From contig JAYWIR010000094.1 of NCBI GenBank assembly GCA_036172245.1, forward strand, positions 62,001 to 126,000: 64,000 bases of DNA. Reading direction: 5' to 3'. The position numbers were made by a program, and so were the translations under genes. Under the pieces are notes generated by a model. The model made no database searches and had not been told where the DNA came from. It was given only the letters and a program-made list of their open reading frames with translations. Each line of letters starts with the position of its first letter. Position 1 is the first letter of the stretch. Source of the stretch: Raillietiella orientalis (lineage: Eukaryota). Below are positions 10,440 to 64,000 of this stretch, one piece after another.

Positions 10440-10544
10440 TGGTCCTCAGGAACAGGTGTGACCTTGCGCTGCTGCAGAAGATCCACGTGATCTCTGCAGA
10501 ACAAGCGTAAAAGATCGAACAATTCTCCGAAGGGCGGCTATTTA
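10440..10544 (+). mobile_element. Short APE N-terminal fragment (outer nest layer, 5' part)
   Basis: Encodes DLALLQKIHVISAEQA*KIEQFSEGRLF, homologous to DLTLLQEIHVISAEQA in F and V. Confidence 0.75.
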
Positions 10545-12625
10545 TCACCCGGGTGCGCCGAGGCGTTTATTAAAAACTATCGGGGAACAGAGTTCCTGGA
10601 CAACGGGGAAAACAAGATACAAAGGGGGTGGGATCCCCGACACGCAGGTCGGTATGGCTAAAGTCCGGAACGAGAGGAAAACGACCACAAATACACTACT
10701 ATGAAAAATTAAAATAAAAAAAAATATGGTGTGCGGGGGACAGGGGTCTTTGGTGAGTCCGTTCCTTCCTTTGAAAACCGGCGATGGATGATAGCGATAT
10801 CTCTCCTTACGTCCTGTGGCAGATGGGCCCACTCGGTAGCCGACGACATGCTTGCGCTGGCTATTCCGGTGGGCTGACGAACGATGGCCAGCTTCTTCAA
10901 CTCTCGGTGGGCCTTGTCGATGGCGCGGGTGCAACACACGGTTGCAACGAAAGCACACAAAGACAGGCCGCCTGGCGTGAAGAAGCGACGCATCAAGTCC
11001 CTCGCGAAGTCCATCTGGTGCAGGAGAGCTGAGGCCAGCCTCCGCCAAAGTCCCAGAAGGGCACCGCAGTCCAAGAGCAGGTGCGGGAGCGTTTCCACTT
11101 CGCCGCACCGCTTGCAGTTTGGGGAGACAACTCCCCCGGAAACACAGTTCGTCCGCTGGCTGGAGTGAAAACCCCAATGCACCAGCATGATGACGTCCTG
11201 CTTCCACGAAAAAGGGAACACAGGAGTGTTCAAAGAGGTGGGAGGGACCACAAGTTCTTCGAAGGACACACTTAAGTGTTCACTCCACCGAAGGAGTCCC
11301 TTCGAGATGTGGCGAGGCGTGGCGGAGTCTGCCAGCTCGCAAGTCCTAAAGCTGCCAATAGGTCGTGTTGTTCCTGCGATGGTGCAGGAGACCTCCCATC
11401 TCGCTGGTTCGCAGCTGTCATCCCTTGCCCTGAGGGCAGACAGTGCGTCGACGAGAGGGGTGAGGGCAAGGCCGGTCCACTTCTAGCTGCTGCAGACCTC
11501 ATCCACCGTGCAGTACGGGGAGAGGTGAACGCAACGGAGTTCCAGGAGGGAAACATCCTGGTGCTTTGCCCAGCCATGCAACGGTTCCTGCCGCCAGGCT
11601 TGAAAGTTCGTTGGGCGGCAGGAGATCCATTCTTGGGCTGCCAGGAACCGGTAGAGGGGTTTCAAGGGGAAACCGAAACTTGTCGTGGGGTGCTTCGTGT
11701 GCGGACGCAGCGACAGAAGTCCGTCGCTGCAAACGCAGCGCCGCAGGAGCAGGCGCGCAGGAGTGCACCACGGAGTGGACCAAAGGTTGGCGCACATGGC
11801 CAACATCCGAAGCTGCACCTGCAGCTCGATTCTCTCCAGCGCCAGGATGTCTAGGCCAGCATCCCGACGCGGAGCCACCAAGTCTTTCAGGCGGATCCTG
11901 GACCTCGCAGGACCCCACATAGCGTTCCTCAACAGGCTGTGCGACTGGAGCTTCGCCGAGAAGGCGGACGGGCAAACAAAAAACAGGGAACGCAAGAGGG
12001 GGGCAACGAAGTTGTTCCATATCGCGGCCCGCTCCGACAGAAGGAACCTACCATGGTGGAACGGGCTCAGGGCATTCGAAGCCTTCCGAAGGCAGTCCGA
12101 CCACACTTCCACTGGACTGATGTTCCCCAGCGGAACGCCCAGAATTTGGGTGGACGAAGCGGCGGAGATCCCCAGGCGGATCCAGTCGGACTGCCCCTCC
12201 CACGCCGCACCAATAGGTACGACCACGCTCTTGCTCCTGTTTACGCTCATGCTTGCTCCCTGGCAACCATCTCGAAGAAATCCTGAAGACTAGACGCCGG
12301 GTTTGTCATGGGTAAGAGGAGAAGCAGGTCGTTAGCATAGGTCGCGACGGACGGCGTTCCTGGACAAAGGCTCGGCAGGTTGGACAGCGTCAGCTTGTAC
12401 GCCCTCATCACCGACTCAAAGAAGATGCTGAAGAGCAACGGGCTTAAGCTGTCGCCCTGCCTGATGCCCTGCCGCACCGGCACGCCATACACGTGGCAGC
12501 CTCTAAATGGTACGGAAATGAGCGCGTGGCGCCAGCAAGCGCGCAAAAAAGCCACGAGGTGCACCGGGAGTCCGAGCCGTTCCAGGAGCTCCAGCAAGAG
12601 ATCCTGATTTACGCAGTCGACCGCC
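10545..12625 (-). mobile_element. Segment B: 3' half of ORF2 (RT from KAVDCV to C-terminal Cys motif), 3' UTR and AATAAA-hairpin end
   Basis: ORFs 12247-12657, 11483-12250 and 10709-11269: GIRQGDSLSPLLF, YANDLL, CKRCGEVETLPHLLLDC; end motif at 10545-10571. Confidence 0.92.
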
Positions 12626-13869
12626 TTGCGTGCTCCAGGGTGGACGTGTTTTCTCAATGCTTCTCGTGCCAGGAAGTTTCCCCCAGTGCAAGCGTCGTGT
12701 GGTTCGGTGGTCGATCAGGCAGCGATGCCTGACGCGACCACCAGGGATGGCCAGAAGGCAGCGACAACGCCGCCCCCAGAGGCGATGGAGAGCCAAAGGG
12801 CGGCGGCAACGTCGTCCCCAGAGGCGATAGGGCGCCAGGGGGCAGCGGCAACGTCGCTTCAAGAGGCGGTGAAGGTGGAAGCATCCGCCCCCACAGAAAC
12901 GGTCCACGCTGCAGCGCGGGCGTGGAGCGCCGTTGTGTCGGCGCCATCGCCTGCAGCCGCGGCGGAATTGTCAGCCTATGTGGAGGAGGGGTATAACCCC
13001 TCATTGTTCTACAAGGTAGGCAATCTCTATTCTTTAGAGAGCGCGCGCACCTTCTGGAAGGGCATGCGCGCTCTCGATGTGAAAGAGGAGGAGCTCAGCG
13101 CTATGACCATCCGCAGCGGGGGTCAGTACCTTGAGGTCATCTGCAAACAAGCAGAGCTGGCCCAACGACAGCTTAAAACCCCCGTGGTGATGGGGACGCG
13201 CAGACTCCTCCTCACTACGGCGGACCTCATCATGGTGGTCCACCTGTTAGGTGTTACCGAGCGGATGCGCAAGGAACAGGTTCGCGCCGCGCTGGAACAA
13301 TTTGGAACGGTCCACGCGCAGTGGACGAAAGTTAGTCCTTTCGAGGACTACACGGGGCTGTAACACGGTCTCACGGCTGCGCGCGTGACCGTTCGGGAGA
13401 ACTGCACACTTCCCCACAAAGTGGTAGTCGAAGGCGAAACCGTCGACCTCTGGTATGTGGGGAAGCCGAAATACTGTGGCTTCTGCAATACGTCGGGTCA
13501 CTTTAAAAAGAGGTGTCCCAACGTGCAGTGACAAGTATGCGGCACAATGGGTCACACGAGGGAAGTGTGCCTAAAAGCAGCAGTGCGGGTGGTTTCCAAG
13601 AGAAACCTTAAAAAACGTACCCGGCTTCTGCAGAAAAGGCTGGCGGCCAAAGCTGCTGCGAAGGCTGTGCCACCCGCGCCCAAGGCCCAGGCCGCACCCA
13701 AGACTTCGGCGAACAACGCCGAACAAGTCGAGGGAACAAGCCAGGAGCCTGGATGGCAGGTGGCTACGGCCAAAAAATCAAAGAAGGAAAGGAGGATGGA
13801 GAAAAAGCTCGCTTGCCGCCAGAAAAAACAGCAGGCAAGCGAGCAAATTAAAGAATGCAGCGTTCTCGT
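12626..13869 (+). mobile_element. Segment B': 5' UTR and ORF1 (H-type gag-like, two CCHC knuckles, disrupted), 3'-truncated
   Basis: Very close paralogue of H (34370-33170); CGFCNTSGHFKKRC and a second knuckle; in-frame stops; probable ATG at 12725. Confidence 0.9.
12757..12880 (+). repeat. Imperfect 42-bp (14-codon) tandem repeat x3 in the ORF1 N-terminus
   Basis: AATTPPPEAMESQR / AAATSSPEAIGRQG / AAATSLQEAVKVEA; only two units in H. Confidence 0.8.
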
Positions 13870-16312
13870 TTATTACCCGGTTGCGCCGGGACGTTTATTA
13901 TAATATCAACTGGGAACTGTGTTCCCAGGCAAGAAGAACACAAAATGTGAAGTAGATTTCCCGGAACGCAAATCAAGTACACTGAGATTTCGGAACGGGA
14001 GGGGGTGGGACAATAAATAACTAAATTGGGTGGGAGGGCGGGGATAGGGGTATACAGTCTAACTGTTCCTATTCTCAGAACCGGCGGTGAATGCCGCCGA
14101 TCTCCATCCTCACTTCTGCTCCAAGATGTGGCCACCCGGCAGCCATTTGCAGGTTGCAGGCTGCGGTGTCGGGGACCGATGTTGGGACTGCTCGCGTCTG
14201 CAATACGTGACGAGCTCTGACAATGGCCCGGACGCAGCAGATGATTGCGACGACCGCTCCAAGAGAAAGATCGCCACGCGTGTGGAAGCGGCGCATCCAA
14301 TCCAGTGCGGTGTGTCCAGGGTGCAGGAGCGCTGAAGACAGCCGCTGCCACAGATCCTGGAGGACATTGCACTTAAACAGCAAATGCGAAAGCGAATCCA
14401 CCGCTCCGCATTGGGCACAGTTCGGGGAAGCAACTCTCCCGGAAATCAGGTGCGCTTGCTGGTTGCAGTACAAACCCCAATGCAACAGCAGAAAAGCGTC
14501 CTGTTTCCATCGAAGGGGAAAGAGAGTCGCGTCCAAACACGCAGAAGGGACCACAAGTTCATCGGTGGGCACCACGAGGAGCTCACTCCACCGGAGAAGT
14601 CCCTTGGCCCGAAGGCGAGGAGTGGCAGCGTCTGCCACTTCGCAATTCCGCCAGCCGCCCAGCAGTCGGGTTTCGCTTGAGATTTCGCAAGCAATCTCCC
14701 ACCTCGCAGGCAGGTCACTGTCGTCTCGCACCATCAGTGCACACAGTGCTTCGGCGAGTTGCGTAGCAACTAGGCGTGTCCACTGGTCCTGGTCTTCCAG
14801 CACCTCCCCCACAAGACAGTATGGGTAAAGGTTCACGCAACGGAGTTCCAAACGGGACACATCCTGTTGCGCAGCCCATGACGATAAGGCTTCTTTCCTC
14901 CAGGCGTTCAAGTTCGTCGGCCGGCAGGAGATCCACTCATGATTTCCCAGAAGCGTGGCGAGCTGCTTCAAAGGGAAGCCGAATCCTCTCCGTGCGCGCT
15001 CCGTGCGCAGATGCAACGAACGTAGTCCGTCGCCACCCGTGCAGCGCTGCAGCAGCAGCCGCGCTGAAGCACACCAGGGAGTAGTCCAGAGATGCGCACA
15101 AAGTGCCAGCATGCGGAACTGCACTAGAAGTCCGATCCGCTCCAGCGTCAGGATGCCCAATCCTGCATCCCGTCGAGGAGCCGTTAAGTCCTTCAGGCGT
15201 ATCCTGGACCTCGCCGGTCCCCACTGGGCGTTACGCAACAGGCGTTGCGCCCGGCGCTTAGACGAGTAGGAAGGGGGACAAACAAAAAAGAGGGGACGGA
15301 GGTGGGGGGCAGCGAAAATGTTCCACACGAAGGACGGTTCCTACAGGAGAAACCTGCCGCCTTGGAACGGGCCCAGAGCAGTCTCGGCCTTGTGAAGGCA
15401 GTCCGACCACGCTTCTGCTGGACAGAAGGCGCCCAATGGAACGCCGAGGTACTTCAAGCACCTGCCCGTGGGGTTCCCCAGGCGGATCCAGTCGGAATGC
15501 CCCTCCCACGTAGAGCCAACCGGTACAACGGATTTTGTCCCGTTGACGCTCAGGCCCGCTCCCCGACGAATGAGCTCCAAGAAGTCCTCGAGCCTGGACG
15601 CCGGGATGGACATGGGCAGCAGCAGGAGAAGCTCGTTAGCATAGGCGGCCACAGCCGGTGTTCCCGGGCAGGAGCTAAGCAGGCTGGCCAGCGTCAGCCT
15701 ATACACCCTCAGCACTAACTTAAAGAAGATGCTGAAGAGCAGGGAGCTTAAGCTGTCTCCCTGCCTGATACCCCGCCGTATGGGAATGCCGTACACGTGG
15801 CGCCCGCTGAAAGAGATACAGCATAACGCGTGGCGCCAGCAGGAGCGCAAGTAGGCAATGAGGTGCGTCGGGAGGCCTAGGAGTCCCAGAAGCTCCAGAT
15901 GGAGGTCCTGGTTTACGCTGTCGAACGCTTTACAGAGATCGACGGGGACCGCTAAGGCTCCCGGCGTTCCATCGTGCCTTGAACACCGCCGCTTACCTTT
16001 GTAAGCGACGATTTCGGCTGCCTAATTCTGCTGCGCCACGCGCTGCTGCAACTGGAACCATGTTCGCGCGAAGAAGAGTTTCGCGTCCATGGACCGCCCC
16101 GGAACAGCATACGTCTGCTCCGGACTTATCAAGGACTCCGCGATTCTTCCCAGGCGCGCGACCCACAGCTTGGAGAACAACTTGACGTCCGAACTCACCA
16201 AGGTGTTTGGACGTCAGTTGCTAACGAGGCGCAAATCGCCGCCTTACGGCAGCAGCCGCACCTTTGCTGAGCGGAAAGAAGCGGGAACATCTCCCGTCTC
16301 ACGCATCAGCGT
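13870..16312 (-). mobile_element. Segment C: 3' part of ORF2 (RT from LMRETGDVPASF), 3' UTR and AATAAA-hairpin end
   Basis: ORFs 15341-15850 and 14075-15328 (GIRQGDSLS, YANE, CAQCGAVDSLSHLLFKC); end AATAAACGTCCCGGCGCAACCGGGTAA at 13873-13899. Confidence 0.92.
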
Positions 16313-23392: not shown

Positions 23393-24099
23393 GTCGAGCG
23401 CACAATACTTTGAGCCGCGGAGCAAGTTCACCGACTCTGCAGGAGAGGAGCGATCTCCCGACTGTCAAGGTGACTCCGTTGCCGCCTTTTAAAGGCGTGG
23501 CGAAAGCAACGCCCCCAGAGAACGCAGCGAAAATCCCGGAGGTTTCCGCAACTACTGTCGCGGAAGCCTTCAAAAATCGCGAAGGCGAATGGAAGGTTGT
23601 AAAGAGGAGCAAAGAAAAATCTCCAAAAAAAGCTCCGCAACCTCCATCCATGAGCTCTTTTAAAGGAAAAAGCAGTCGCGGGAATACGAAAATACGCGCG
23701 GCTTTTGACTCTTCCAAGGAAAAAGCCATGGCCTTCAACGCGTGAAAGTCCGCTTCTGTGACCGCCGAGAAGACCATTCCGGTGCAATCGGAAGGATGCA
23801 AGCGCACGTCTATCGTGCGAGCATGAGACTCCACAAAGGAGTCCGATAACGCAGCTGAACGACGCGTAACTCGCGCGGGAGCGAGCGCCCGCAGGGCTGA
23901 AGCCCTGAGGCGTAACACACTCGCCGCGGAACAAGGAGTGCTCACACCGGAACCCACAGGTTCTGCACCCGGGGAGGAGCACCCGATTACGTGCAGCACA
24001 GTTGAGGCCGGTGGCGACTGCGCCCTCCAGCCCGTCGTGCTGCTTACTGCCCGCTCGCCGGGTGAGGCGAGCACCACTGCCTCGCTTTCTCAGCCGTGA
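23393..24099 (+). pseudogene. E ORF1, C-terminal low-complexity part
   Basis: A/P/K-rich, EGEWKVVKRSK motif, ends SLSQP* overlapping the ORF2 ATG; internal stops. Confidence 0.75.
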
Positions 24100-27000: not shown

Positions 27001-27654
27001 TCAAAGCAAGCAACGACGGTTGCCTACCGGCGGAATGGGAGTTCTCCTGCAAAATAGCGGGAGTCAGTAAGCTCCTCGGCAGCTGGACGACAAAGGAGCT
27101 GGTGCAAGCCGCCACACCTCGGAATCGGGCGAAGGGACTGCTTCGGTGGAGCGAACATTTAAGTGTGCCCCCCGGAGAGATAGTGGTTCCCCCCGTTTGC
27201 TTGGACAGCTCCGTGTTCCCCCTTAAGTGGAAACAAGATGTGCTGCTCTTTTTACATTGTGCATTTCACTGTAATAGGCAGCGAAGCATCGTTTCCGGGG
27301 GAGCTGCTTTGCCAAACTGTTTAAGGTGCGGAGAGATCGAGTCTTTTCCGCACCTTTTGCTGGACTGCGGTGACCTCCGTGAACTGTGGCGAAGGCTCAC
27401 TTCGGCCATCATGCCACAAGGAGGCACTGCCATCGAGATGCAGAAATGGACTTTCGGTTGGCGCGATTGTCGCAACCATGTGTTGCGTTCGCGCCATCGT
27501 GAAGGCCCGCTACAACCTGGAGTTGTCATCGCAGCGAAAGGAGGCTCACCTGCTTGCAGCTCAATTCATGGAGAAGGCTTCAAGGTGGTCTCATCTTCGT
27601 GACAAGGTGAATGAGGACATCACCGGCATACATCGCTGGTTTACACACCTTTGA
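24099..27654 (+). CDS. E ORF2: APE endonuclease + reverse transcriptase + C-terminal Cys/His motif; open for about 1,120 codons, frameshift near 27450
   Basis: SWNVNG, LLQEIH, NVYAP, AGDFN, DHVYL, SDH, KAPGEDG, WRPITLVN, DLHKAFD, GIRQG, YADD (26091), HLGV, CLRCGEIESFPHLLLDC. Confidence 0.95.
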
Positions 27655-27977
27655 GAACGGCGTAATCCGGTGATCCCTTCGACCTCTCGCCCACCCATAA
27701 CCCGTCCCCGTTCGCTCGGTAAAATTTCCGGTGCCCATGCTTTTATCCCCGTGTATTCCAGAGCGATCCCAAAGACTCTTATCCCGTCCTCCTTATTCAT
27801 TGTTTTTATTTTATTTTGGTTTCTTTGTGTTTCCCGCCCCCCCAAACCGTTCACAAATCTGTTACTCTGGCCTGCGTGCCAGCAATATTCTCTTCATTCT
27901 TATTCAGTCGTCGGTTGAGAGTTTGGTTCCCAACTGGCTTATTTTGTATAATTGCTTTTTTTGGTTATGTTATATGG

Positions 27978-28004
27978 AATAAACGCCCCGGCGTGACCGG
28001 GTGA
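27978..28004 (+). terminator. Conserved element 3'-end signal: AATAAA + CCCGG-N5-CCGGG hairpin (type example)
   Basis: Homologous motifs at 1006-1033, 10545-10571, 13873-13899, 28554-28584, 36454-36484, 40873-40903, 43858-43882, 45439-45469, 46232-46264, 49931-49959, 51458-51488, 54118-54146, 61696-61725; some are decayed. Confidence 0.85.
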
Positions 28005-28008
28005 GAAA

Positions 28009-28553
28009 TCTCTTGGGCTTGTTCTGCAGAGATCACGTGGATCTCCTGCAGCAGCGTAAGGTCGCAGGACTCGAGAAGGGCGGCCACGTCTCGTCTCCTG
28101 CCGGCGTCTGTCATGCCGTTCACGTTCCAAACAGCGATGCGCAGACGACGGCGGGAGGAGATTCCCGGCATTACTGCAGGGAAGATTAAGGTGTGGAGGA
28201 GCCCTCCTCTTGCGAGGCGGGCGGGATGTTTATGGGGGTTTCGGCCTTCTCAGGCACCTGAGGCACCTGTTCGGCCTCCACCCCCTCCATCCCCTCCGTG
28301 TCCGCGCGTGGGAGTCTCTCGGGCGACGGGTCCCGAGTGTTTCCCACGCTCATGGCATTCTCGCTTGCGGAAGCCATCTCTTCCCCTTCGACGAGGGAGA
28401 CGAGCTTCCTTGGCTTTGTGGACCTACGTCCAGCCTTCTTGCGCGGTGCCGCGGAAACGGAGGCTGCGCTTCCGGCCTCCACCTCGGGGTCGGAAGTGGG
28501 GGACTCCTGAGGGGAGGCCGGACGCCTTACGGCTTTCTTGCCAGCCTTGGAGG
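28009..28553 (-). mobile_element. Segment F: ORF1 C-terminus + APE N-terminus; continuation of H beyond the G insertion
   Basis: SKAGKKAVRRPASP...; MPGISSRRRLRIAVWNVNG..LLQEIHVISAEQA; H+F are contiguous in the uninterrupted copy V (about 52740-52800). Confidence 0.88.
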
Positions 28554-28785
28554 TTTACACCCGGGTACGCCCGGGGCGTTTATTTTTTAAAAAAAAGAAA
28601 AAAAAAAAAACAACTCTACATCCGCGGTACAAGGCCCCGCTCACGGCCATATGCACTGGACCTGCCGGGACGCCGGGACGCAGCCCAGCGTAGCGTTCCT
28701 CAGCAGCGAAGGGGGATGGGGATAAAACCAAAAGAAAAATAAAAAACATAAACAGACAAAAAGAAGTTGGAGGGCAGGGAAGGGA

Positions 28786-31700
28786 TCACTGAACGCTGTG
28801 AGGAGGGCCCATCCGTTGAAGGAAGCCCTTGAAGTCCGTCCGTATATTCCCCAGTTGGGGCCATCCGGCAGCTCTCCGCATGAAGCGTTGGGCGTATGGG
28901 ACGACATCCCTCGCGTGTGGACCCACTCCTTCGGTATTGGCGTCGCTCCATGCCGCCACGATGCCACGGACACAGCACAAGGCTGCGATGGCTGCGGCTG
29001 GCTGCAGTGCGTCCTTCACGAAGAGGGGCCGAAGAACGTCTCTGGGGGTGCTGCCCGTAGGGAGCCCTCGGGTCGCCCCGAACCGTTCCCAGAGGGGTCG
29101 GATGGCAGCACAATCCACAATAAGGTGGGGAAGCGACTCCCGCTCCCCGCACCTGGCACACGCAGGATCCACAGCTCCCCTCGTCCAGTGGAAGCGGCGC
29201 GCGTTGCAGGGTAGACCCCAGTGCAACAACAGCAACGCCGACTCTTGCCACTTAAGGGGCAGGATCCTGGATTCCTTTAATACCGGGGGCCACTTCAGCA
29301 CATCCGTAGGGATGGCGAGCAGCTCGCCCCATCTCATTAGTCCACGCGGCTGGACGCTCGGGGTCGTGGCGTCCGCCAGTTCTCCTGTGGTCCAGCCGCT
29401 TAACATCTTCTCCCTGCCTGCGATCTGGCAGGTGACTTTCCACCTCGGCTTCTGGCAATCCTGAAGCGCCCTCAGGAGGTAGGGCATCGCCGTAGCAAGG
29501 AGGGTCGTCAACGCCCACCTGCGACTCCGAGGAAATTCGAGTATTTCCCGCAGGGTGCGGTTGGCGTATGGGCCGATTCGCAGGCAGTTCATGTGGTTTT
29601 CGCTCCTCCGGTTCAGCTTAGCCCATGTGCCAGCAGACTCCACTAACCAGGCGGAGGAGTTGGCAAGGCCACAAACCATCCAACCGTTCGTCTTCGCCAA
29701 GGTTGCTATGCGTCCGAGCATAAGGCCGCATCTTCGGATCTTCCGGCCAGGGCACAGAAGAAACGACGTGAGTCCTTCGCATCGGGACACACGCCTGGCG
29801 AGGTGGCGGGCCGGAACGCACCAAGGGGTGCTCCACATCTTCGCTGCGATGGCGAGGGTTCGCCACCGCAAGCTGGATTTCCACGCGCTCCAGCGTCAGG
29901 AGGCCAAGGCCGCCGTCCCGACGCGGAGCGCACAAGTCCTGCAGAGGGAATCGGGGCCTCCCCTTGCCCCAAAGGGCGATGCGGAGGAGGTCTTTCGTCC
30001 TCTTTTTAACTACTCTTGGGGCGGGGCAAACAAGAAGCAAGGGGCGGAGGATGGGGGCCGCGAAGGCGTTCCAAACCGCGGCCCGTTCCGGCAAGTGAAA
30101 CTTGCCTTCCAGGAACGGGCCGATCGCCGTCTCGACTTTTTGAAGACAGCTGGACCACGCTTCCGCAGGGGAGTAGTCACCCAACGGCACACCAAGGTAC
30201 TTGAGGCACCTCGCCGTGGGGATCCCCAGACGGACCCAGTCCTGCTGCCCTGCCCACGCCGCACCTACTGGCACCACCGACGACTTCGCCCTGTTGACCT
30301 GCAGTCCGGTCCCACGGCTGAGCAGATCGAAGAAGTCTCCGACCGCCTTCGCCGGGGTGGACATAGGTAACAGGAGCAGAAGGTCGTTGGCATAGGCTGC
30401 TACGGCGGGCGTGCCGGGACACGAGCTAGGTAAGGAGGCCAAAGTCACCCTGTAGGCTCTCAGCACCAACTCAAAGTAGGTGCTGAAGAGCAGGGGACTC
30501 AGCCTATCTCCCTGCCTGATGCCCCGCCGCACCGGCACGCCATGCACCTTCTGACCGCTGAAACAGACGGAAATTATCGCATGGCGCCAGCAGGAGCGCA
30601 GGTAGTTGATCAAGGAGGGTGGGAAGCCCATGCGACCCAGGAGCTCCAACAAAAGCCCCTGGTCAACACAGTCGAACGCCTTATGGAGATCGACTGCGAG
30701 CGCTAAGGCCCCCTTCCCCGCCCGGGAGTCCATTCCCTGCCCTGCTGGCGGCCCTAAAGTGGGGTTGCCGATTTTTCCTTTCCCTTCCTTTTGACACCTC
30801 TGCGCGTGCATCCACGTGCTCGCGAAGAAGAGGTTGGCATCCATACTTCGCCCGGGAACAGCATATGTCTGCTCCGGGCTAATAATGGATTCTGCCACCT
30901 GCCCCAGACGCGAAGCCCATAGCCCGGCAACCAACTTGGCGTCCGTATTCACAATCGTGATCGGACGCCAGTTGTTCAAATTCCTAAGGTCTCCCCCTGT
31001 CGGAAGGAGCCTCACTCTGGCTGACCGAAACGAGGCGGGAACATCGCCTTCGTCTCGGATCAGCCTTGTCAGCTGAAGCAGCAGGGGTGCCAGCTCTTCC
31101 GCGAAGCTCTGATAGAACTCCGCGGGCAAGCCGTCTTCCCCTGGAGCTTTCCGACTCTTGAGCCTTTTGATACCGGCGAGAATTTCGCCGGTGGTAAAAG
31201 GCTCATCGAGGCTTAACGACTCCTCCTCCTCTATTGCCGGGGCACCATCCGGAAGCAAGAGCCGAGAGGCATCTTGATCCGGGGGCGCCCTGGCGTAAAG
31301 GGAGGAATAATAACTCCGCACGAGATGCCGTACCGACGCCGGGGACGAACATTCCCGTCCCTGGTCGTCCAGCAAGCTGGCCGACCCGGATTGCCAGGCT
31401 TGGCGTTCGGCCCCGGCGCGGTACTCGGCCAGGCGACGGACATTAGGGGTTCGCTCGTACCTACGGGCCTGTAAATAGGCCCGATGGTTGCGAGGACCCT
31501 CGCCGAATCCGGAGGGCAGGCGGTCCAGGGGGAACTGCTCGCAGAATGTTCGGACCGATTCCTTAAAAAGGTCCCAGTCTTGGAGATTCCGGAGCGTGAC
31601 GCCTCTCAGGTATTCGCGAAGGTGTTCCTTCGCACCTGAGAGTCGCGTCCGGTCCCCCGGCAGACGCCAGTCTGTGGATGGCGGTCCTTTGTCGCGAGGC

Positions 31701-31925
31701 CCCATCTCGAAAATTAACCGGGAATGGTCCGACAACGTTGACGCAACCCTCCCCCGTTTGCCGACCCGTGAACACAGGTCAGCGTCGAGGAAGACGTGGT
31801 CGATGCTGCGGACCATTCCCCTCTCACCTGCGAACAAGCTGCGCGCACGCATGGCGGCGCACAACTCGTTCATCGCGTTCACCTGTGTTTCCGGCTCACC
31901 TGTCAGCAGGCGGAGATTGAAATCC
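28786..31925 (-). pseudogene. G ORF2 lacking the APE N-half; frameshift near 29875; YAND instead of YADD
   Basis: ORFs 29618-31930 and 28786-29871 with all RT motifs and CARCGERESLPHLIVDC. Confidence 0.92.
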
Positions 31926-31940
31926 CTCAAGCTGCCATCC

Positions 31941-32876
31941 CTATTCGCCTTCCACCGTTTCAGAAGGTTTATCCTCCGGCTTACGCGCCGGAGGTTGAGG
32001 TGTTGGCAGCTTGTGCTGGCTCTTTTCTACTTTAGGTCTAGAGACCTTTGAAGCACGTTTCCCCTGCGCTTTTTTCGCGGCAGGGGGAACCGGGGTGGGG
32101 CGTTTGGGACACACGCGCCGAACGTGGCCCCGCTCCCCGCACAAATGGCATTGTATATTGGGACACCTTTTACGTAAGTGTCCCACGGTATCACAATGCC
32201 CGCAATACCGGGGCTTCCCTACATACCACAGGTCGACGTTTTCTTGCGCCACCTGTAGTTTGTGGGGAAGCCCACAATTCTCCCGTACGGTCACCCGCGC
32301 TGCAGCCTGCCCACCAAAAAGGCTATCGAAGCCGTCGAAAATGGAGGGTTTCGGCCACAGTGCGTGCACCTCACCGTACTTTCTTAATTCCTCACCAACC
32401 GCTGACCGCGTCATGCGGCTGGTGATGCCAGTCATGTGGACCACCACGGAGCGGTCCATTGATACTGGCAGGATCTTTCGGCCGTCTACGTTCAGCGGCG
32501 CATGGATTAGGCGGTGAGCCAAGGTGACATCTTTGCAGACCACCTCGACCCGCTGCCCGCCGCTGAGGACGGAGAGGCCGTCCAGATCCTTCTCAGTAAC
32601 GTTCGCGTCCTTCAACGCTTTGCTGAAGGCGCGCGCTGTCCGGCCGTCGAACAAGTTGCCTACCTGGTAGACAAGCGATGGCTTGTACCCGGAGGCCTTG
32701 TATGCGGCCATCTCCGCCATGGCTTCTGCGCTGGGCGCGGCCACCATGGCGCTCCATGTCCTCGGCGTGGCCGGGGATGATTCCGGGGCGGCTGCCCCTG
32801 CTCCAGTAGGCTGTGGGGGCGAACTAGCCTCCCCCACTCCCACCTCCATCGCGGTGTCCTCTGGCGTCGTGGCCAT
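31941..32876 (-). pseudogene. G ORF1 (gag-like, two CCHC knuckles), C-terminally truncated
   Basis: MATTPEDTAMEV.., CGHCDTVGHLRKRC, CHLCGERGHVRRVC. Confidence 0.9.
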
Positions 32877-32951
32877 TGGACACCGACGATGTACACAAAA
32901 CACCACACAGAAGAAGAAGCGCTTTCCTACTACTCTTTGGGGAGTGAAGGA

Positions 32952-32962
32952 AAAACACGTCC
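32952..32962 (-). promoter_or_regulatory. Conserved 5'-terminal motif GGACGTGTTTT (putative internal promoter element; type example)
   Basis: About 13 nt inside the TSD-defined 5' end of G; variants at 12642, 16324, 34357, 43245, 54095, 56415, 63670, 63948. Confidence 0.6.
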
Positions 32963-32975
32963 TCCTACTGGCCGC

Positions 32976-34370
32976 GGAGGGGGCTGGCTGCAACGAGGCT
33001 GGCAGCTCCTCCGCGGCTCGCGCGAAGGCTACGTCATCGATGGTGGTGTCGATGACGGACGCCGCCGCCGGCTTGCTCCCCTCGCTGTTGACTGTGTCAA
33101 CAGAGATGAGGTCGTCGGTAGCGGCGAGTTGTTTCCGGCAGCGTTCGACAACATCGAGAACGCGTTCGACAACGACGCTGCATTCTTTAATTATTGCGCT
33201 ATCCTGCTCTTTCTTCTTCTGTTGGTAGGCGATTTTCTTTTTCATCCTCCTCTCCTTCTTTGATTTTTTGGCCTTTGTCACTTTCCACCCAGTCTCCTGT
33301 TCGGCTCCCTCAACTTTTTCTGCGTTGGTCGCCGGGGTCTCGGGTGCGGCCTGGGTCTTGGGCGCGGGTGGCACTGCCTTCGAGGCAGCTTTCGCCGCCT
33401 GCCTTTTCTGCAGAAGCCGGGCGCGTTTTTTAAGGTTTCTCTTGGAAACCACCCGCACTGCTGCTTTCGGGCACACCTCCCTCGTGTGGCCCATTGTGCC
33501 GCATACTTGGCATTGCACATTGGGACACCTCTTTTTGAGGTGGCCCGACGTATTGCAGAAGCCACAGTATTTCGGCTCCCCCATATACCAGAGGTCGACG
33601 GTTCCGCCTTCTACCACGAGTTTGTGGGGAAGAGTGCAGCCCTCCCGAACGTTCACGCGCGCAGCAGTGAGGCCGTGTGGCAGCCCCGTGTAGTCCTCGG
33701 AAGGACTTACTTTCGTCCACTGCGCGTGGACCGTTCCGAACTGTTCCAAAGCGGCGCGAACCTGTTCTTTGCGCATTCGCGCGGTTACGCCTAACAGGTG
33801 GACCACCATGCTGCGGTCCGCCGTAGTGGGGAGGAGCCTGCGCGTCGGCATCACAACGGGGGCTCTAAGCTGTCGTTGGGCCTGCTCTGCATGTTTGCAG
33901 ATGACCTCAACGTACTGACCCCCGCTGCGGATGGTCATAGCGCTGAGCTCTTCCTCTTTCACATTGAGAGCGCGCATGCCCTTCGAGAAGGCGCGCGCGC
34001 TCTCTAAAGAATATAAATTGCCTACCTTGTAGAACAATGAGGGGTTGTACCCCTCCTCTACATAGGCCGACAATTCCGCCGAGGTTGCAGGCGATGGCGC
34101 CGACACAACGGCGCTCCACGCCCGCGCTGCAGCGGGGACCGATTCTGTGGGGGTGGATGCCCCCACCTCCATCGTTTCTGGGAGCGACGTTGCCGCCGCT
34201 CCCTGGCTCTCCATCGCCTCTGGGGGTGACGTTTCCGCTGCTCCCTGTCCATCCCTGGTGGTCGCGTCAGGCATCGCTGCCTGATCGACCACCGAACCAC
34301 ACGACGCTTGCACTGGGAAAGACTTACTGGCACGAGGAGCACTGAGAAAACACGTCCACCCTGGAGCACG
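32976..34370 (-). mobile_element. Segment H: 5' UTR and uninterrupted ORF1 N-terminal two-thirds
   Basis: First half of the 810-aa ORF: RAWSAVV, YNPSLFYKVGNL, CGFCNTSGHLKKRC, CQVCGTMGHTREVC. Confidence 0.9.
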
Positions 34371-36484
34371 CAAGGCGGTCGACTGCGTGGACCAGGAGCT
34401 CCTACTGAAGCTCCTGGAACGCTTGGGATTCCCGGTCTATTTGCTGACCTACCTGCGATCCTGCTAGCGCGACGCGCTCATCCAGATGTTTTTTGGTGGA
34501 CACACCGTGCACGGCGTACCAGTGCGACGCGGCATACGGCAGGGAGACAGCCTGAGTCCCTTGCTCTTCAGTACCTGCTTCGAGTTGGTACTGAGAGAGT
34601 ACAGGGAAACTCAAGCACACCTGCCTCGAGAATATCCCGGTATGCCCGCGGTGACAGCATATGCGGACGACCTACTGCTGCTGCTCTTTATGTCCATTCC
34701 GGCATCGGCGGCCGAGGAGTTCCTCGACCTGTTAAGTCGGGGAACCGGACTTGAAGTGAACAGGGCGAAGTCGTCCGTCATGCCAATCGGTGCGGCGTGG
34801 GCAGGGCAGCCGGACTGGGTCCGCTTGGGTATCCCCACGATACGGTACTTCAGGTACCTCGGTGTACCAATGGGTGATTATCTCCCTTCGGAAGGGTGGT
34901 CCAGGTGCCTTCAAAAGGTAGAGACGGCGATCGGCCCGTTCCAAGGCGGTAGGTTTTTCCTGCCAGAACGGGCCGTGGTGTGGAACGCAATCGCAACGCG
35001 CCTCCTCCGTACCCTGCTTTTTGTTTGTCCTACCACCACAGAAACTAAAAAGCAGACGAAGAACTTACTAAGGATTGCCCTGTGGGGAAATGGGTGGGCC
35101 GGATTCCGGCTTGAGGACTTGAGCGCTCCGCATAGGGATGCCGATCTCGGCCTCCTGATGCTAGAGTGGCTGGCGCTCCAGCTCCAGTTTCGGTTACTCG
35201 CCCTAGTGGCGAAATATTGGAGTAGCAGTTGGTGCGAGCCCGCACGTCTCCTCGTCGTGCAGGCTACAGGCACGGTGGGACTGTCATCCTACTTTGCGCT
35301 CCTTCGTCGCCGCCAAGTCGGTCACTGCGGGCTGCAGCTGCGAAGAGTGGCTGACCAGATCAGGAAGAACGCGGAATTGCTTTGCTGTCGCCAGGTTAAC
35401 GGACCTACATGGCTGCAGGAATCGGTTCAGACGTGGGCAAAAAGCAACCAGCAACGCACCGAAGAAGGGCAGAGACAATTCTTCGCCCGTAATGACCGCC
35501 TGACCCTACGGGAGGTCCTATACAACCCCCAAAAACAGGCGTGGGCAAGAAAAACTCCCCTCGCTGCAATGCTTATTCCGCTCACGGAACATTTAAAAGC
35601 AACACTGCTGCGAAATTGGATGTTTACGTTAAAATCTCCGTACGGAGAAAAAGATCGGGGAATGGAAAACGGGAATTCTCTGCGATGCTGCGGCCCGGAT
35701 TACCACCCCTATTGGACTTTCGCGCTGGGGCGAGCTGCTGAATGTTCCGCTGGAACAATTAAAGTGGCCCTCGGTGCTGATGAACCCTCCACCCATCCCT
35801 TAAAATGGCAGGAGTCGGCGCTATTGTTGCTGCATTGGGGACTCCCCTGCAACGCCCGCCGACACCATTGGACCTGGGGAGCGGTGAGTCCTAATTGTGC
35901 GAGGTGTGGATAACGGGACTCACTCACTCACGTCCTTTTGGATTGTGTGGCTCTCCGGCCCCTTTGGAACCGTTTTGCCGCGGCATTCGGTAACCCCTGT
36001 GGCAACCCCAGAGACGCAATCAGATCCCTCTTCGTTTGCGACGCCCTTCGGCCCTCGGCCTCGTTAGCAGCTCTGTGCTGCTTTCGCGGGATCGTCGCTG
36101 CATGGAGCAAGGCAACGAGAGGACCACGCGATAGAGGTGCCGTCCAGTGCGCAGCCGAATTTATGAGGACGGCGACAGGATAGACCCATCTGGATTTAAA
36201 CATCCAAAAAGAGCTTGCCGGCATCCTGCAAAGGATGTAACCGTCCCACAGCAGACTGTGATCCCTTCTCGTGCCCCCCAGATCTTGATTTTATATATTT
36301 CTTTTTGTTTTATATTTTGTTTTGTCCTTGGCCCCTCTGCTGTCGTGATGGACCGTTCCGCAATACGAACCGATGACCCGGCAGATTTAATTTTGTATAC
36401 CAGTGCGTGAACGGACCACCTGGTCAGATACCAACGTTTGTTTTATTCGAAAGAATAATAGCCCCGGCGCAACCGGGTGAAAAA
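34369..36484 (+). mobile_element. Segment I: 3' half of ORF2 from KAVDCV, 3' UTR, hairpin end
   Basis: ORF 34486-35913 (GIRQGDSLSPLLF, YADDLL, CARCG); end at 36454-36484. Confidence 0.92.
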
Positions 36485-38928
36485 CGAGCTCCCGAACAAT
36501 TAAGGTCTGGAGATGCTGCCGGTGGTGCTCCGCAGCCACCGCATTCCTCAACCAGTCGGCCGGCAACCTCCAGACGTGCGTCAGAAGGCCCTTGCCTGGC
36601 GGGAGCAACTCGAACTCGAGCCTTTAGTGGTCGGAAAGCTCGGACGGCACAAAACCTCTTCGACCCACCCGACAATGCAGATGATCGTCGAGGCACACAT
36701 GGTCCGGCAAAGCAAGCATTTCGGGATGGTCGGCTAGCAAATTCAAGGCGTGCACGGACGCGCACACCTCGTTCACCAGCCGTTTCTCCCGCCGACGGCG
36801 AGACTCCTCGGATAGCGCGTGGACGTTGAAGTCCTTGGCTACGAGGTGAGCCACGTCGGGGCCGTAGTTGCTGAGCCAGCGGTCGCGCAGTCTCTCGGAA
36901 AACTCCAGTTTCTCGGTTTGACGCGTGGAACCGCACAGCGCGTACACGTTCGTGACGACAAAGTTGATCGATACGGACCACTTCAGGACAAGTTGGCCCA
37001 CACGATTTTCCTCGTCGAAACAAACGCTCCGCACCGCTCCTGTCACCCTGCCCCGGTCAAAGAATGCGACTCCGCAGGTATTCTGGGAACCCGACATCCA
37101 ATGGAGCGTCCCGCCTGCGCGAACTCGCAGATGGGCCGCTTTCTGCTCAAAGAGTGCGTGAATCTCCAGCAGCAGGGCCAGATCAAAGTCGCGCAAGACG
37201 TTGACAACCAATCGCCTCTTCTCGTTGTCCTGCAGCCCGTTGACGTTCCAACATGCCACTCGGACGCGACGGAAACAACCGAGACCGCGCATTGCTGCTA
37301 CGGACATGGAGATGCGTTCCTTGCCCCTTCCGGCGAGGCATCAGCCGGGAGCGCGGCGGATGAGGTAGCGCAAGCGCTTCCTGTCGCCGCCGCGCCGCTC
37401 GCGGCTGGCTCGGTGGAGTCGAGGACCATTGCCTCGGGCTCCGAGGAGCATCAGGAACCGTTCGCAGCATCAGGCTCTTGCCTGGCAAGTTTTGGGTTGC
37501 GCGCAGCCCTGGCCTTGACCGGGGCTTGGCGAGCCTTAGCGCTGCCGTCGGACTCCACCTCGGAGTCCGAATTCCGCGCGCGCGGCGGGCGTTTCGCCTG
37601 CCTCTTTTTTTGCTGGCAGCCCGGAGCTGGTGCAGCACTCTTAGAGGGTGCCTTCGTCGCCGATCCCCCTTTCGGGGTCACGGCTTCGGCAGCTCCCCTC
37701 TTGCCTCGGTTGTTTGCGACGGCGCGCGCGGCGGCAGCAGAGGCTTTTTCTTGCGCCTTCCTTGGCGCGCGTGGCTGCCTCTTCACCCGCCTACCTTCTT
37801 GATCGGGAAGTGGAAAGGATGGCGCGGTTTGCGCTCCTTTCTCCCGACGAAGGTCCAGCCATCCTCTCCGCTTTCAGGGTTTCCACGGTTGGGCGCGAGG
37901 GCTTCCAGGGTCCTTCGCATCCTTTCCAAGGCCTCGGATACGGCGATGGAGGCCAGTGTCTCCTTCGCCACTTCTGCCTTCGGCACCTGCTTACCGGAAG
38001 GTGCGGGCAGAGTAACGGGATTCTCGGGGGTCGCGCGTGGCTTTGCAGCCTTTGCTGGCGTTCGGCCTGCAGTGGCCAACTTGCTTGTCGCGGGGAAAGG
38101 GGCGCGCGACTTCTTTTCGGACGCTCCGGTGGACTTCCCGGGCGTGCCACCGCTATTTCTCTCCGGAGCGAGAGCAAACGGAAGCGGCGGTTTTGCAGCC
38201 TGCCCGATGTTATCGGCGGGCTGGGTCGCTCGAGGCTTTACGGAAGCAGCTTTCTGAAGCTTCTTGTCCTTTCGCGCGGGTGTTTGTGGAGCATTGCTCC
38301 GGGAATCGCCCGCGCAAGCGGACTTTTCACTTCTTCGCTGCGAATCCTCGTTCGCGCCGAATTTCTTCCTTGACGACGAGGTGGATGGAATCCGCGCGGA
38401 CGGCGATGTTTTGGGGAGCTTTCTCGCCCTCCTTTTTCGTTTTAGCTCGGCGCACTCGTTAATCGAGTGGCGCAGCAGCTTACAGTGTCGGCAACTGCGT
38501 GTTGGGCACTTCCGCGAACGGTGGCTCTCCTTCTTGCAGTTGCCGCAAGCAGGGGTTGGCCCGGCAAACCGGAGAGAAACGACGACGTCACCGAGGAGGA
38601 TTTGCGAAGGCATAAGCCTCCGGTCGTCCATGGTGACGCGCGCAGTTTCGAGTCCGCAAGAGAGGTGCGCGACTTTATTGATCAAATTCGCGCGCCTCCA
38701 CATTGCGTGCACTGTGGCGAACGCCTCGAGTTCAACAATGATGTCGCGGTCCGTGATTCTCGGCCGAATGCCCGGGAGCTGTACTACAAACGATTGGTCC
38801 AGGGCCGACCGGACGATCTTCTTATCCTTGATTTTCAGGGGCGCTCGCAGTAGGCGCTAGACGAGGGCTGCATCCTTGCAGTGCACCTCTCAATGGCCTA
38901 CCGCGCTCACTGGCATAAGTGCCAGGAG
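36485..38928 (-). mobile_element. Segment J: 5'-truncated E-type ORF1 + APE
   Basis: ORF 37783-38712 (CGNCKKESHRSRKC, CRHCKLLRHSINEC) and ORF 36624-37307 (CWNVNG, DFN, DHV, SDH). Confidence 0.9.
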
Positions 38929-44802: not shown

Positions 44803-45469
44803 GTGCTGGACTGCGCTCAATTCCGTTACCTGTGGCGAAGGCTGATATCAGAATTTCTGCCGCAGGGAGGCACATCCATTGATGTGCTGCGACGCTTGTT
44901 CAGCAGGAATGGACTTGCGTTAGGATCAATTGTCGCACCATGTGTTGCATTCGCGCCCTCGTGAAGGCCCGCTACGTCCTGGAGTTGTCAGCGCAGCGAA
45001 GGGAGGCTCACCGGTTTGCAGCAGAATACATGGAAAAGGCTACTAAGTGACCTCATCTTCATGACGAGTTCAAAGAGGACATCGCCGGCATCCTTCGCCG
45101 GTTTACAGACTTTCAAGAACGGCGTAATCCTTTGACCATTGTGACCTGTAGCCCACCCATCGCACTTCCACACTCGCTCTGCAAAAATGACGGAGCCATA
45201 ACTTTTATCGCGGTGAGAACAAAAGGGTTCCAAAAGACTCTTGTCTTGGCGTCTTCCATTGTTTCCTTTTCCTTATTTTTTTTTCGCTTGCATTCCTTGT
45301 CTCCAAACTCCTTTTCAGAAGAGTGTTATTCTGGCCTGCCTGCCAGCAATCTTCTCTTGATCCTTGTGCGGTCGTCGGTTTGGAGCATGGTTCCCAAATG
45401 GTTTATTATATATAATTGTTTTTGTTTATGTTATATGAAACAGACGCCCCGGCGGGAACGGGTAAGAAA
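44803..45469 (+). mobile_element. Segment O: degraded copy of the E-type 3' end
   Basis: Colinear with about 27358-28008. Confidence 0.85.
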
Positions 45470-45965
45470 TATCCTGCGCCTGTTCTGCAGAGATCACATG
45501 GATCTCCTACATCAGCGCAAGGTCGAAGGAATCCAGAAGGGGGTCACCTCTCGTCTCCTGCGAGTGTCTGTCATGCCGTTCACGTTCCAAACAGCGATGC
45601 GCAGACCACGGCGGGAGGAGATTCCCGGCATTACTGCCGGTAAGATAAAGTTGTGGGAGAGCCCGCCTCTTGCGAGGCGGGCGGGATGTCCATGGGGGTT
45701 ATGGCCTCATCAGGCACCTGAAGCACCTGTTCGGCCTCCATCTCTCCATCCCCTCCGTGTACGGGCGTGGAATAATCTCGGACGACAAGTAGCGAGATTT
45801 TCCAACGCTCATGGCGTCCTCGCTACCAGAACCCAACTCTCCCCCTTCGTCAAGGGAGACGATCTTCCGTGAATTTGTGAACTTTCGTTCAACCTTCTTG
45901 CGTAGTGTTGTGTAAACGGAGGATGCGCTTCCGGTCTCCATCACAAAGTCGGAAGTGGGGGCATC
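45470..45965 (-). mobile_element. Segment P: F-like ORF1 C-terminus + APE start
   Basis: Colinear with about 28009-28500. Confidence 0.85.
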
Positions 45966-61695: not shown

Positions 61696-63627
61696 TTGTT
61701 ACCCGGATATGCCGGAGAATTTATCAATATAATCCTTACAGAATTAGTCAATAAAGTCTTTGAAAAGTTTGTTGTAGGGAAACACTTGCTTTTCCTACCT
61801 TGGTTGACGTGTCGGTTGCCGGTGCATAGACCGGTTAGGTTGATTCCCGAGGCGCATAGGAAGGGAAAACTAGAACAAAAAGAAACAAAAAGAAAAATAA
61901 CGGGGGCATAAACAGTTATATGGGAGAGTGGGGGGGGGCAGGGTAGGGATCACTGGGCGCCTGGGTGGGTCCTCTGCATCCTGTTTAGGATGCAGTCAAG
62001 TTCCGCTTTCATCGTTGGAGGTAGACGCCACCTTGTCGCCGTCTCTAAAGAGATCGTCGTCCAGTGGATGGCGTCCCTGCATCTTGGGCCTCTTCTTCTA
62101 ACGTGCCACCTTTGCACAATGTCGCGCACGCTGCAATGGACTGCTAGAGACGCAGCAAAGCGCAGGCCGTCACGCAGAAAGAGGCGAAGGAAAATTTCCT
62201 TAGGGTCGCCTACTGGAAGATGGAGGATTGCGGCGATTCGACTCCAGAGTCCAACCAGGGCGACACACTCGAGGATGAGATGAGGGATGGTTTCCCTTTT
62301 ATTGCACTCGACACAGCGTGCATCCACATTTCCCAGTGTCCAGTGAGATAGGCGTGCTCTGCTTAACAGTACCCAGTGCAGAAATAGCAACGCTGTCTCC
62401 TACCACTTTAATGGAAGGGTGACGCTTTCCCAACACGCTGCGGGCCACTTCACCTCCTCCGGAGGTATAGCGAGCAGCTCTTTCCAGCGCGAAACCCCTT
62501 GAGACGGGACGCTCGGGGTGACAGCGTCTGCTGGTTCCCGAGTCGTCCACGTTCTTAAAGGTTTTCTCCTGCCTCGGATGAGGCAGCACACTTCTTACGA
62601 TGCCCGCTCTTTGCTGCTCCTAATGTTTTTCAGGGAGGACAGAACGGGGGCAAGAGGGGTGAAAGAATTCCACAGAAAATTCCGGGGCGTGTTGATAATC
62701 TCCTTCAGCGGCTGTCGAGCGTACGGTCCTTGACGTAACCAGTTGTATTCCGCCTGGCTCGTGCCGTTGATCTTAGCCCAAGCGGAGACTGACTCCTGAA
62801 GCCAGGTAGTGCAGTTCACGGGGAGGCAGGAGATCCAAATATTCTCCCTCTGCAAATCAGGGCGATTATCTGGCGCAGATCGAAGCCACAGTTGTTGCAG
62901 AGGCTGCGCTGGTAGGCCATGAGGATCGAGGACAATCCTTCGCAGCCGGTCATTCTTCTGGCGAGAAGCCGTGTCGGTTTGCACCATGGCGTCATCCATA
63001 AGCTAGCCGCAAGGGGTAACTTGCGAAGTGTAGTTTGCAGTTCGATGCGCTCCACCGTGAGGAGGCTCAATCCACCGTCGCTGCGTGGAGCGCACAAGTC
63101 TTTCAATCAGACTCGCGACCTCGCTGTGCCCCAAAAGGCAGTCCTGGAGAGGACTTTAGTCCGTGTCTGTATGATGGAAGGGGCGGGGCAAACAAAAAGT
63201 AACAGGCGAAGGAAGGGGGCCGCGAACGCGTTCCACACCGCGGCCCGGTCCTGCAAGTAAAACTTGCCGTTCCGGAACAGGCCGATCGCCATCTCCACCT
63301 TTTGGAGGGAGTCGGACCAGGCTTCTGCAGCGCAGAAGTCTTCCAACCGAACGCCAAGGTACTTGAAGCAACTGCCCGTGGGAATCCTTAAGCGGATCCA
63401 GTCCGGCCGGCCGTCCCAAGCCGTAGTCGAAGATGTCGGAAGAATCATGGATTTCACTCTGTTTACCTCGAAACCCGTCCCACGGTTCAGCAACTGAAAG
63501 AAATCTTCGAACGTCGATGCCGGGATGGACCCGGGAAGCAGAAGCAGAAGGTCGTCGGCATAGGCCCACACGGGAGGCGTACCTGGACACGAGCTCGGCA
63601 GGGTTGCCAGAGTCTCCCTGTATGCCC
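61696..63627 (-). mobile_element. Segment AB: R-like 3' half of ORF2 with 3' UTR and hairpin end
   Basis: Colinear with about 46232-48171; YADD near 63551-63562. Confidence 0.9.
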
Positions 63628-63649
63628 ATGTGGTCGTAGGCAATTACAA

Positions 63650-63885
63650 CGTTCGCTTTCATGAGAAACGGACGTGATTTCGTGTCGCTTCGTTTATCCG
63701 CTGTTTGGTTGTTTGTGCGTCCCACTGCACTTCTCTACGGATGAGCAGTGAACAGCGCAACGTGGAAGACCTCTAGCCTGTGGTTCAGAAACTTCCCGCA
63801 GCTGGAGCGATTGCGACAACCTGTGCGAGCGCCGCGCCACCGGTCAGGAGCTTCGCGGACATGGCCACATCTGAGGCCGTGCAAG
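63650..63885 (+). mobile_element. Segment AC: probable 5' UTR and ORF1 start
   Basis: GGACGTGATTT at 63670, T-rich leader, ASRTWPHL resembling the RTWSA motif. Confidence 0.55.
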
Positions 63886-63894
63886 GATGCCTCC

Positions 63895-63955
63895 CCAACC
63901 AGATGCCAATTTCGTTTCTGGCATGAGGAGCACCGAGGAAACACGTCCTGATAAG
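63895..63955 (-). mobile_element. Segment AD: H-type 5' end
   Basis: GCATGAGGAGCACCGAGGAAACACGTCC matches H GCACGAGGAGCACTGAGAAAACACGTCC. Confidence 0.7.
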
Positions 63956-64000
63956 CGTAAAGCATTCGAATGCGTTGATGAGGAAGTGCATGTTGAGATT
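63956..64000 (+). mobile_element. Segment AE: start of a degraded RT 3' half running off the window
   Basis: Encodes RKAFECVDEEVHVEI, homologous to KAFDCVDQELLLEL. Confidence 0.65.

Follow-up and report, generated by a model that had tools for sequence, protein, structure and literature searches.

Two copies of a long interspersed nuclear element (LINE) lie backwards on the same reverse transcriptase codons of unrelated LINEs, suggesting that they carry a piece of their landing site for precise docking

The locus

The 64,000-nucleotide (nt) stretch of Raillietiella orientalis DNA analysed here (assembly GCA_036172245.1, contig JAYWIR010000094.1, positions 62,001 to 126,000; hereafter the window) contains a GC-rich island (0.54–0.62) that starts near 10 kb and is preceded by AT-richer DNA. 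The island is made almost entirely of related retrotransposons without long terminal repeats (non-LTR type), LINEs that we refer to collectively as a guild. Our subject is one of them, element H, which is present as two copies with their 5' ends preserved. Each is joined by that end to the reverse transcriptase (RT) gene of another LINE. We call the copies H-J1 and H-J2 and the RT genes they adjoin J1host and J2host; other elements of the guild carry single letters. Coordinates of the main features are collected in Table 1.

Element E supplies the single intact second open reading frame (ORF2), at 24096–27602. It matches Exo_endo_phos (3.2e-11) and RVT_1 (7.2e-17), i.e. an apurinic-type endonuclease followed by an RT. 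The ORF1s of the guild carry CCHC knuckles, and the architecture of LINEs with an apurinic-type endonuclease (APE-type; ORF1 plus ORF2) is present at the level of the guild. Of H's own ORF2 only amino acids (aa) 1–56 are left, in H-J2, and the APE and RT assignment for H therefore comes from its guild relatives.

Table 1. Positions of the features discussed, counted from the first nucleotide of the window (UTR, untranslated region).
Feature	Position	Strand	Description
H-J1 tag, 20 nt	12611..12630	+	Antisense on the H strand to R-K-A-(F>V)-D-C-V; outermost 5' end common to the H copies
H-J1 linker, 13 nt, tgctccagggtgg	12631..12643	+	Between the tag and the start motif GGACGTGT; same in both H copies
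H-J1 5'UTR (to 12724) and ORF1 (ATG 12725)	12644..13864	+	Decayed, stop at 13363; ends at about nt 1250 at the 3' end of element C
J1host	10541..12610	-	RT and C-terminal ORF2 from the codon after the tag to the 3' hairpin; E/C clade
J1host tail			Adjoins antisense of an ORF2 N-terminus (~aa 65)
H-J2 tag, 20 nt	34369..34388	-	Same as 12611–12630
H-J2 linker, 5'UTR, ORF1	32960..34368	-	Extends past the H-J1 cut point
H-J2 continuation (ORF1 tail and ORF2 aa 1–56)	28007..28553	-	Beyond inserted element G; ends at the 3' end of element E
J2host	34389..36488	+	RT, C-terminal ORF2 and 3'UTR; G/K clade
J2host tail			Adjoins antisense of element M ORF2, ~aa 270
Third junction	63956..63975	+	R-K-A-F-E-C-V, same RT codons; 5/20 bases unlike the H tag; host RT leaves the window
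J3-type 5'UTR	63627..63955	-	Head-to-head on the third junction; then an RT fragment at 63626 from ~aa 645
Element C (ORF2 aa 443–1146 and 3'UTR)	13865..16312	-	Tail cuts H-J1
Element G	28554..32959	-	Inside the H-J2 ORF1 tail, same orientation; between two unlike 20-nt target copies
Nine element 3' ends	10547–10563, 13875–13891, 27986–28002, 28559–28576, 36462–36478, 40881–40897, 45447–45463, 49939–49955, 54123–54137

Two H heads on the same codons

Both junctions are head-to-head, with the H 5'UTR and ORF1 on the opposite strand and pointing away from the RT, and both fall on the same RT codons. They share a 20-mer, CGCAAGGCGGTCGACTGCGT, which has two exact occurrences in the window, at 12611–12630 (minus strand) and 34369–34388 (plus strand), with none expected from 100 shuffles. 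Allowing up to three mismatches gave no further match in the window. The first-pass annotation of this DNA had reported an identical 20-mer at these two junctions, and the 20/20 agreement bears this out. The reading frame of the 20-mer at both sites is R-K-A-V-D-C-V, uninterrupted into the RT. At both (2/2 copies) the sequence is present once, in register and in frame, in place of the host's own codons.

The valine replaces a phenylalanine. The base responsible (G) is in both tags and in none of the five other RT copies read (C, E, G, K and the host at a third junction, J3), as the annotation had proposed on the basis of element E, whose 25800–25819 reads as quoted there. By our count the other copies differ from one another at four to six of the twenty tag positions, while J1 and J2 differ at 0/20. 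The bases TGCGT (in the sense of the RT), which would be the last of the H complementary DNA (cDNA), are the same in four of the five other copies.

The identity continues into the element. Between the tag and the start motif GGACGTGT lies the 13-nt linker tgctccagggtgg, and this 33-nt 5' extension (20-mer plus linker) has no differences between the H copies; the 94-nt H 5'UTR has six mismatches by our count. Upstream of the common start motif, five families (H, G, J3-type, H2 and R) have unrelated sequence, which makes the 33 nt an H-specific addition.

The 20 nt might instead belong to the hosts, as the flank or target duplication of an ordinary endonuclease-defined insertion at KAFD, identical by chance or through a patch of gene conversion. 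In three heads in three different hosts (the two H heads and the J3-type head described below) the onset of RT homology falls on the same base (±1), as a fixed cleavage site would give, and in so conserved a motif cross-copy identity is already 70–80 per cent by our count. However, with other RT pairs differing at a mean of about five of the twenty positions, we estimate the probability of no difference at below 1 per cent. The base common to J1 and J2 and found in no other copy also tells against a host origin, and the identical linker shows that H inherits sequence outside its start motif in any case. Conversion is taken up with the divergence of the H copies.

Where H ends and the hosts begin

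We measured the break between H and the host RTs in a pairwise alignment of the two loci. On the H side, 1060 of 1191 aligned columns are identical (0.89). Identity is 20/20 over the tag, 0.67 over the next 100 nt and 0.63 over the following 800 nt, and perfect runs across some 900 nt of RT flank reach 13 nt at most. Moving the change point from after the 20-mer to before it costs 6.8 log-likelihood units. The first full codon past the tag is already a signature of the host clade, N in J1host, C and E, and D in J2host, G and K. The annotation's statement that the host RTs diverge past the 20-mer is thus accurate.

When six RT copies were compared from the end of the 20-mer onwards, no pair was further apart than J1host and J2host (0.55–0.62 identical). 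Nearest to J1host are C and E (0.66–0.73), and nearest to J2host are G and K (0.60–0.73). In a maximum-likelihood tree built from the 1 kb that follows the 20-mer, {J1host, C, E} is separated from {J2host, G, K, D} in 77 per cent of 200 bootstraps, with a path between the two hosts of about 0.94 substitutions per site; an earlier quick tree supported no fork. The hosts belong to different subfamilies, as had been claimed, and the 20-mer is identical across that distance.

Twin priming is known to produce head-to-head joints between a full 5' end and an internal point of ORF2 in L1, and several joints of this form occur in the window. An inverted 5' module and an RT 3' half would then derive from one RNA, joined in a single insertion. 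We rejected this candidate: the 5' modules are 0.89 identical and the RT halves 0.55–0.63, which is not what one RNA of one family would leave, and the identical joint would be needed twice at the same base. We regard such an origin as extremely improbable.

Divergence of the two H copies

Of 1211 aligned columns, 131 are not the same in H-J1 and H-J2. Across 372 codons of ORF1 the synonymous divergence (dS) is 0.279 and the nonsynonymous divergence (dN) 0.098 (62.2 synonymous differences over 266.5 sites and 77.8 nonsynonymous over 849.5), so that 23 per cent of synonymous sites differ and dN/dS is 0.35. This ratio is far from neutral and indicates that the copies come from diverged active lineages and not from one dead junction that was duplicated. 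To judge from the codon comparison, most of the H divergence was accumulated in active lineages under purifying selection, not after a DNA duplication. The copies would represent two separate retrotranspositions, J1 the older and J2 the younger by the decay of their ORFs.

The same figures bear on two alternatives. One ancestral H/RT junction might have been duplicated as DNA, with a flank later replaced by recombination whose breakpoint fell by chance just past the 20-mer. The loci mirror each other, with RT tail then H head in one and H head then RT tail in the other, and many RT copies lie nearby for recombination. Yet a dN/dS of 0.35 is unlike decay after duplication, and the flanks, which belong to different clades, are unlike from end to end (0.63 over 800 nt). 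The elements that interrupt H-J1 and H-J2 are also not the same, and they cut the two copies at different places. The first-pass annotation had named co-divergence of flanking RTs and ORF1 as the mark of a single duplicated junction; dN/dS and the flank tree both reject it, and we hold this history to be very unlikely. As for gene conversion, the H copies are inverted repeats 21 kb apart and able to exchange patches, but they have not been homogenised, given the differing columns and the dN/dS, and a patch confined to the tip would be ad hoc. An endonuclease-defined insertion with a host-derived 20-mer therefore seems unlikely to us.

What remains is a 20-mer that agrees at 20/20 positions and keeps its private F>V base, while the hosts are 0.55–0.63 identical and ORF1 has a dS of 0.28. 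With n=2, this pattern supports a reading of the 20-mer as part of the element, an inherited tag of upstream target sequence that is joined in register. The annotation's proposal that the 20-mer travels with the element agrees with this, given its identity over a host path of ~0.94, the private base and the unchanged extension.

The translation of H ORF1 contains two C-x2-C-x4-H-x4-C knuckles in the H part, by eye. An 810-aa open frame at 31941–34373 (minus strand) is a read-through fusion of H ORF1 with the ORF1 of the inserted element G; its Pfam zf-CCHC match falls within the G-derived part and not in H, and Pfam found no match in the H-J1 fragment alone. Transcription from the H promoter could take G with it, and chimeric elements might arise in this way. 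The target copies beside G (28533–28553 and 32961–32980) differ at about eight of twenty positions. The copy at the 3' side of G resembles the uninterrupted relative H2 (52747–52767, one mismatch), and the copy at the 5' side is unique in the window; G may have an inherited target tag of its own. The ORF2 of G (29618–31930, minus strand) follows straight on from the G ORF1, with a start that corresponds to about aa 155 in the E ORF2, and has no Pfam endonuclease match, so that G is either internally deleted or composite.

A third head at the same place

The annotation had counted three joinings of one 5'-end type to these codons. This stands for 12611 and 34369 but not for 63956, where the head matches H over only a 34-nt 5'-terminal segment (88 per cent) and nothing in the remaining ~295 of its 329 nt matches H. 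The linker of this head has 9 nt, against 13 nt in H. The attached ORF1s, which had been described as very similar, are so for the H-J1 and H-J2 modules (89 per cent); the third junction has no ORF1 attached. Only 25 nt of its host lie within the window. The J3-type head is a different family on the same spot and contributes nothing to the argument about the tag.

Tails and nesting

We located tails through the conserved 3' hairpin, which gave nine elements from twelve regular-expression hits. These tails adjoin ORF2 at about aa 56 (twice), 65, 142, 270 and 305, the H ORF1 tail (twice) and the H2 5' tip. The tails of elements E and U meet the same ORF2 base (~aa 56), and the J1host joint is 26 nt off. 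A composite of an E-type 3' end and antisense ORF2 aa 56 of an H-like element occurs at both 27358–28502 and 44804–45961, with 78 per cent identity on both sides; either one site was used repeatedly or this is an old duplication. The H2 head (54099–54137, minus strand) follows the 3' hairpin of another element, 17 nt downstream of it and pointing the same way; such a head-to-tail tandem departs from the antisense rule at the other joints. The head of element E (16313) shows no shared tag. Two M-type heads (38933 and 58420, 70 per cent alike) were considered as a test of generality and set aside, as their host sites differ.

From 10457 to 40904 the strand changes from segment to segment, and the segments can be paired like nested brackets. 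In this nest every tail site is in the endonuclease half of ORF2 or in ORF1, and head sites frequently fall in the RT half (aa 443, 570, 645–650). Either host sequence was lost as heads were joined downstream of the priming site, or there were a few large deletions. Parsed as a Russian doll, the nest reads Z( J1host( H-J1( C( E )H-J2 )J2host )M )Q; its orientation is consistent at all levels, with head and tail sites that differ. Taken literally, it has the head joined away from the priming site and 0.9–2 kb of host lost. We do not rely on it as proof of differing head and tail sites: it pairs near-identical H modules with RTs of different clades, and one deletion at the insertion of E, whose tail meets H-J2 at ORF2 aa 56 and whose head meets C at aa 443, would look no different, with both H tails gone.

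Common ends of the guild and database searches

At least five families start with the motif GGACGTGT(N)TT(N)C (at 12642, 32962, 63948, 54094 and 43245), with 5'UTRs that are otherwise unlike. This common 5' start is probably the ancestral transcription-start region of the guild. Nine element 3' ends consist of AATAAACG, a CCCGG(N6-7)CCGGGT hairpin and a short A-rich end without poly(A). The common hairpin end is likely a recognition signal for the RT.

A protein search with H ORF1 returned none of 8000 scored candidates at E <= 1e-5. The E ORF2 gave twenty-seven distant matches (19–30 per cent identical), two of them labelled 'hypothetical protein', one bearing an unrelated NCBI name and the others unnamed. 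Exact-pattern scans for the H linker plus start motif found no matches in either of two public collections (metagenome contigs and genome contigs), and a sequence index of other DNA stretches showed no look-alike of the H head or the H module. In one DNA sequencing run (6 per cent of sampled words), eighty-nine short pieces fell on 11500–14000, mostly less than 90 per cent alike, and among the eight listed none spans 12611–12652; these pieces speak neither for nor against the tag.

Discussion

A proposed mechanism

H would have inserted backwards on the R/H-K-A-F-D-C-V codons in the RT genes of two LINE clades. Its RNA would start with the antisense tag, so that the 3' end of the cDNA has the sense of the target RT. 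That end could anneal in register to the cleaved target, be extended or serve as template, and prime or seal the second strand, and the host codons would be replaced by the element's own copy. Joining of this kind has been proposed for R2 RNAs cleaved upstream in 28S and for melanogaster-type R1. The in-register replacement at both sites is what annealing would give, from which we infer, with n=2, that the tag directs 5' joining by homology. The transcription of the tag, annealing as the maker of the junction and the choice of the same site by the endonuclease are likewise steps that we infer. The endonuclease may set the site and the tag only sharpen the junction, as in R1 and R2. The explanation that we favour, if by a little, is that H is one lineage within a guild of APE-type LINEs that reside inside each other in a GC-rich repeat island, and that with its inherited antisense tag of RT codons it inserted separately in two clades by R1/R2-like joining.

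A bolder version has the tag itself pick the place where the head is joined. Antisense to the motif-A region (KAFD), it would let the element dock in any guild lineage through that lineage's RT gene. We think this doubtful. If true, docking could follow even when target-primed reverse transcription had begun elsewhere in the host, with loss of the DNA between tail and head (0.9–2 kb on the Russian-doll reading). It would be an RNA-templated, homology-guided homing on a stretch that sister LINEs can hardly alter without loss of function, a target that cannot escape, and would account for islands built of truncated, alternately oriented LINE pieces.

Several observations weigh against tag-guided joining by H. 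There are only two H copies, and a tag common to two might be a local event. H also contains perfect runs of 69 and 49 nt, which make the 46-nt perfect run at its tip unexceptional, and we dropped that run as a sign of selection. Conservation of the next RT stretch (ELLER) means that likelihood alone leaves the break anywhere from +0 to +48 after the tag. No Rfam family reached its gathering score anywhere in the window, matches at 12400–13100 with E <= 10 were at chance level, and the folding energies of the two H tips are no better than shuffles (z of 0.05 and 0.24). An R2-like self-cleaving RNA at the 5' end of H was rejected on these grounds.

The 3' side adds to these difficulties. None of the nine located tails is at KAFD, and no ORF2 fragment in the window ends near aa 569. 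The window contains no H 3' junction, the 3' parts of both copies being absent (possibly lost by one later deletion). Finally, the 13-nt linker between tag and body has no counterpart in the models for R1 and R2.

Comparison with known systems

Some APE-type LINEs of the Tx1 group have a fixed target inside another mobile element. They target DNA transposons or small RNA genes rather than a sister LINE's catalytic RT motif, and we know of no report of a 5' target tag in this group.

The closest known mechanism for H is the upstream-28S tag of R2 and melanogaster-type R1. R2 RNA that its ribozyme cleaves upstream in the 28S ribosomal RNA (rRNA) retains as much as 36 nt of upstream target, which leaves target sequence on the cDNA (Eickbush, Burke and Eickbush 2013, PMC3774820). 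H resembles it in having a 20-nt target copy at its outer 5' end and a uniform, in-register junction in both copies (2/2). R2 differs in its restriction-like endonuclease, single ORF and sense insertion in ribosomal DNA (rDNA), and in being co-transcribed with its target, with a 5' ribozyme like that of hepatitis delta virus setting the RNA end. H, by contrast, is assigned to two-ORF, APE-type LINEs, lies antisense in another LINE's RT gene and has no detected ribozyme.

Full-length transcripts of melanogaster-type R1 are inferred to carry 6–27 nt of upstream target, whose annealing to the target makes for 5' junctions of high precision; a 14-bp target duplication is the mark of ancestral R1 (Stage and Eickbush 2009, PMC2718515). 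R1 is like H in being an APE-type, site-specific LINE. It is unlike H in that its target is 28S rDNA, in the sense orientation, and in that its tag was shown through off-target and rearranged junctions.

For nesting, the nearest parallel is Zepp and ZeppL of green algae, L1-type LINEs clustered by insertion into existing copies (PMC3446292, PMC8226300). These nests are GC-rich (~61 per cent GC in Zepp, against 0.54–0.62 here), but are described as mostly 3' ends left by 5' truncation, and the available text of the reports mentions neither a fixed target at the codon level nor an antisense rule nor an inherited tag. Nested LINE clusters (Zepp, ZeppL), target-specific APE-type LINEs (R1, Tx1) and target tags (R1, R2) are thus already known. 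A literature search, with subscription journals mostly outside its coverage, found no LINE homing antisense into the RT motif of a sister LINE and no tag of that motif.

Implications for LINE integration

The completion of LINE integration, i.e. second-strand priming and 5' joining, is poorly understood, and its best natural clues are the rDNA target tags of R1 and R2. If our reading of H is true, it would add a second, unrelated tag system and make tag-guided 5' joining general and not an oddity of rDNA. H would be an APE-type LINE with a copy of its target, that target being the catalytic motif of rival LINEs in antisense, and would offer a concrete mechanism for LINE-in-LINE homing. A short RNA-borne homology that fixes the 5' junction would also be of practical interest for retrotransposon-based gene insertion.

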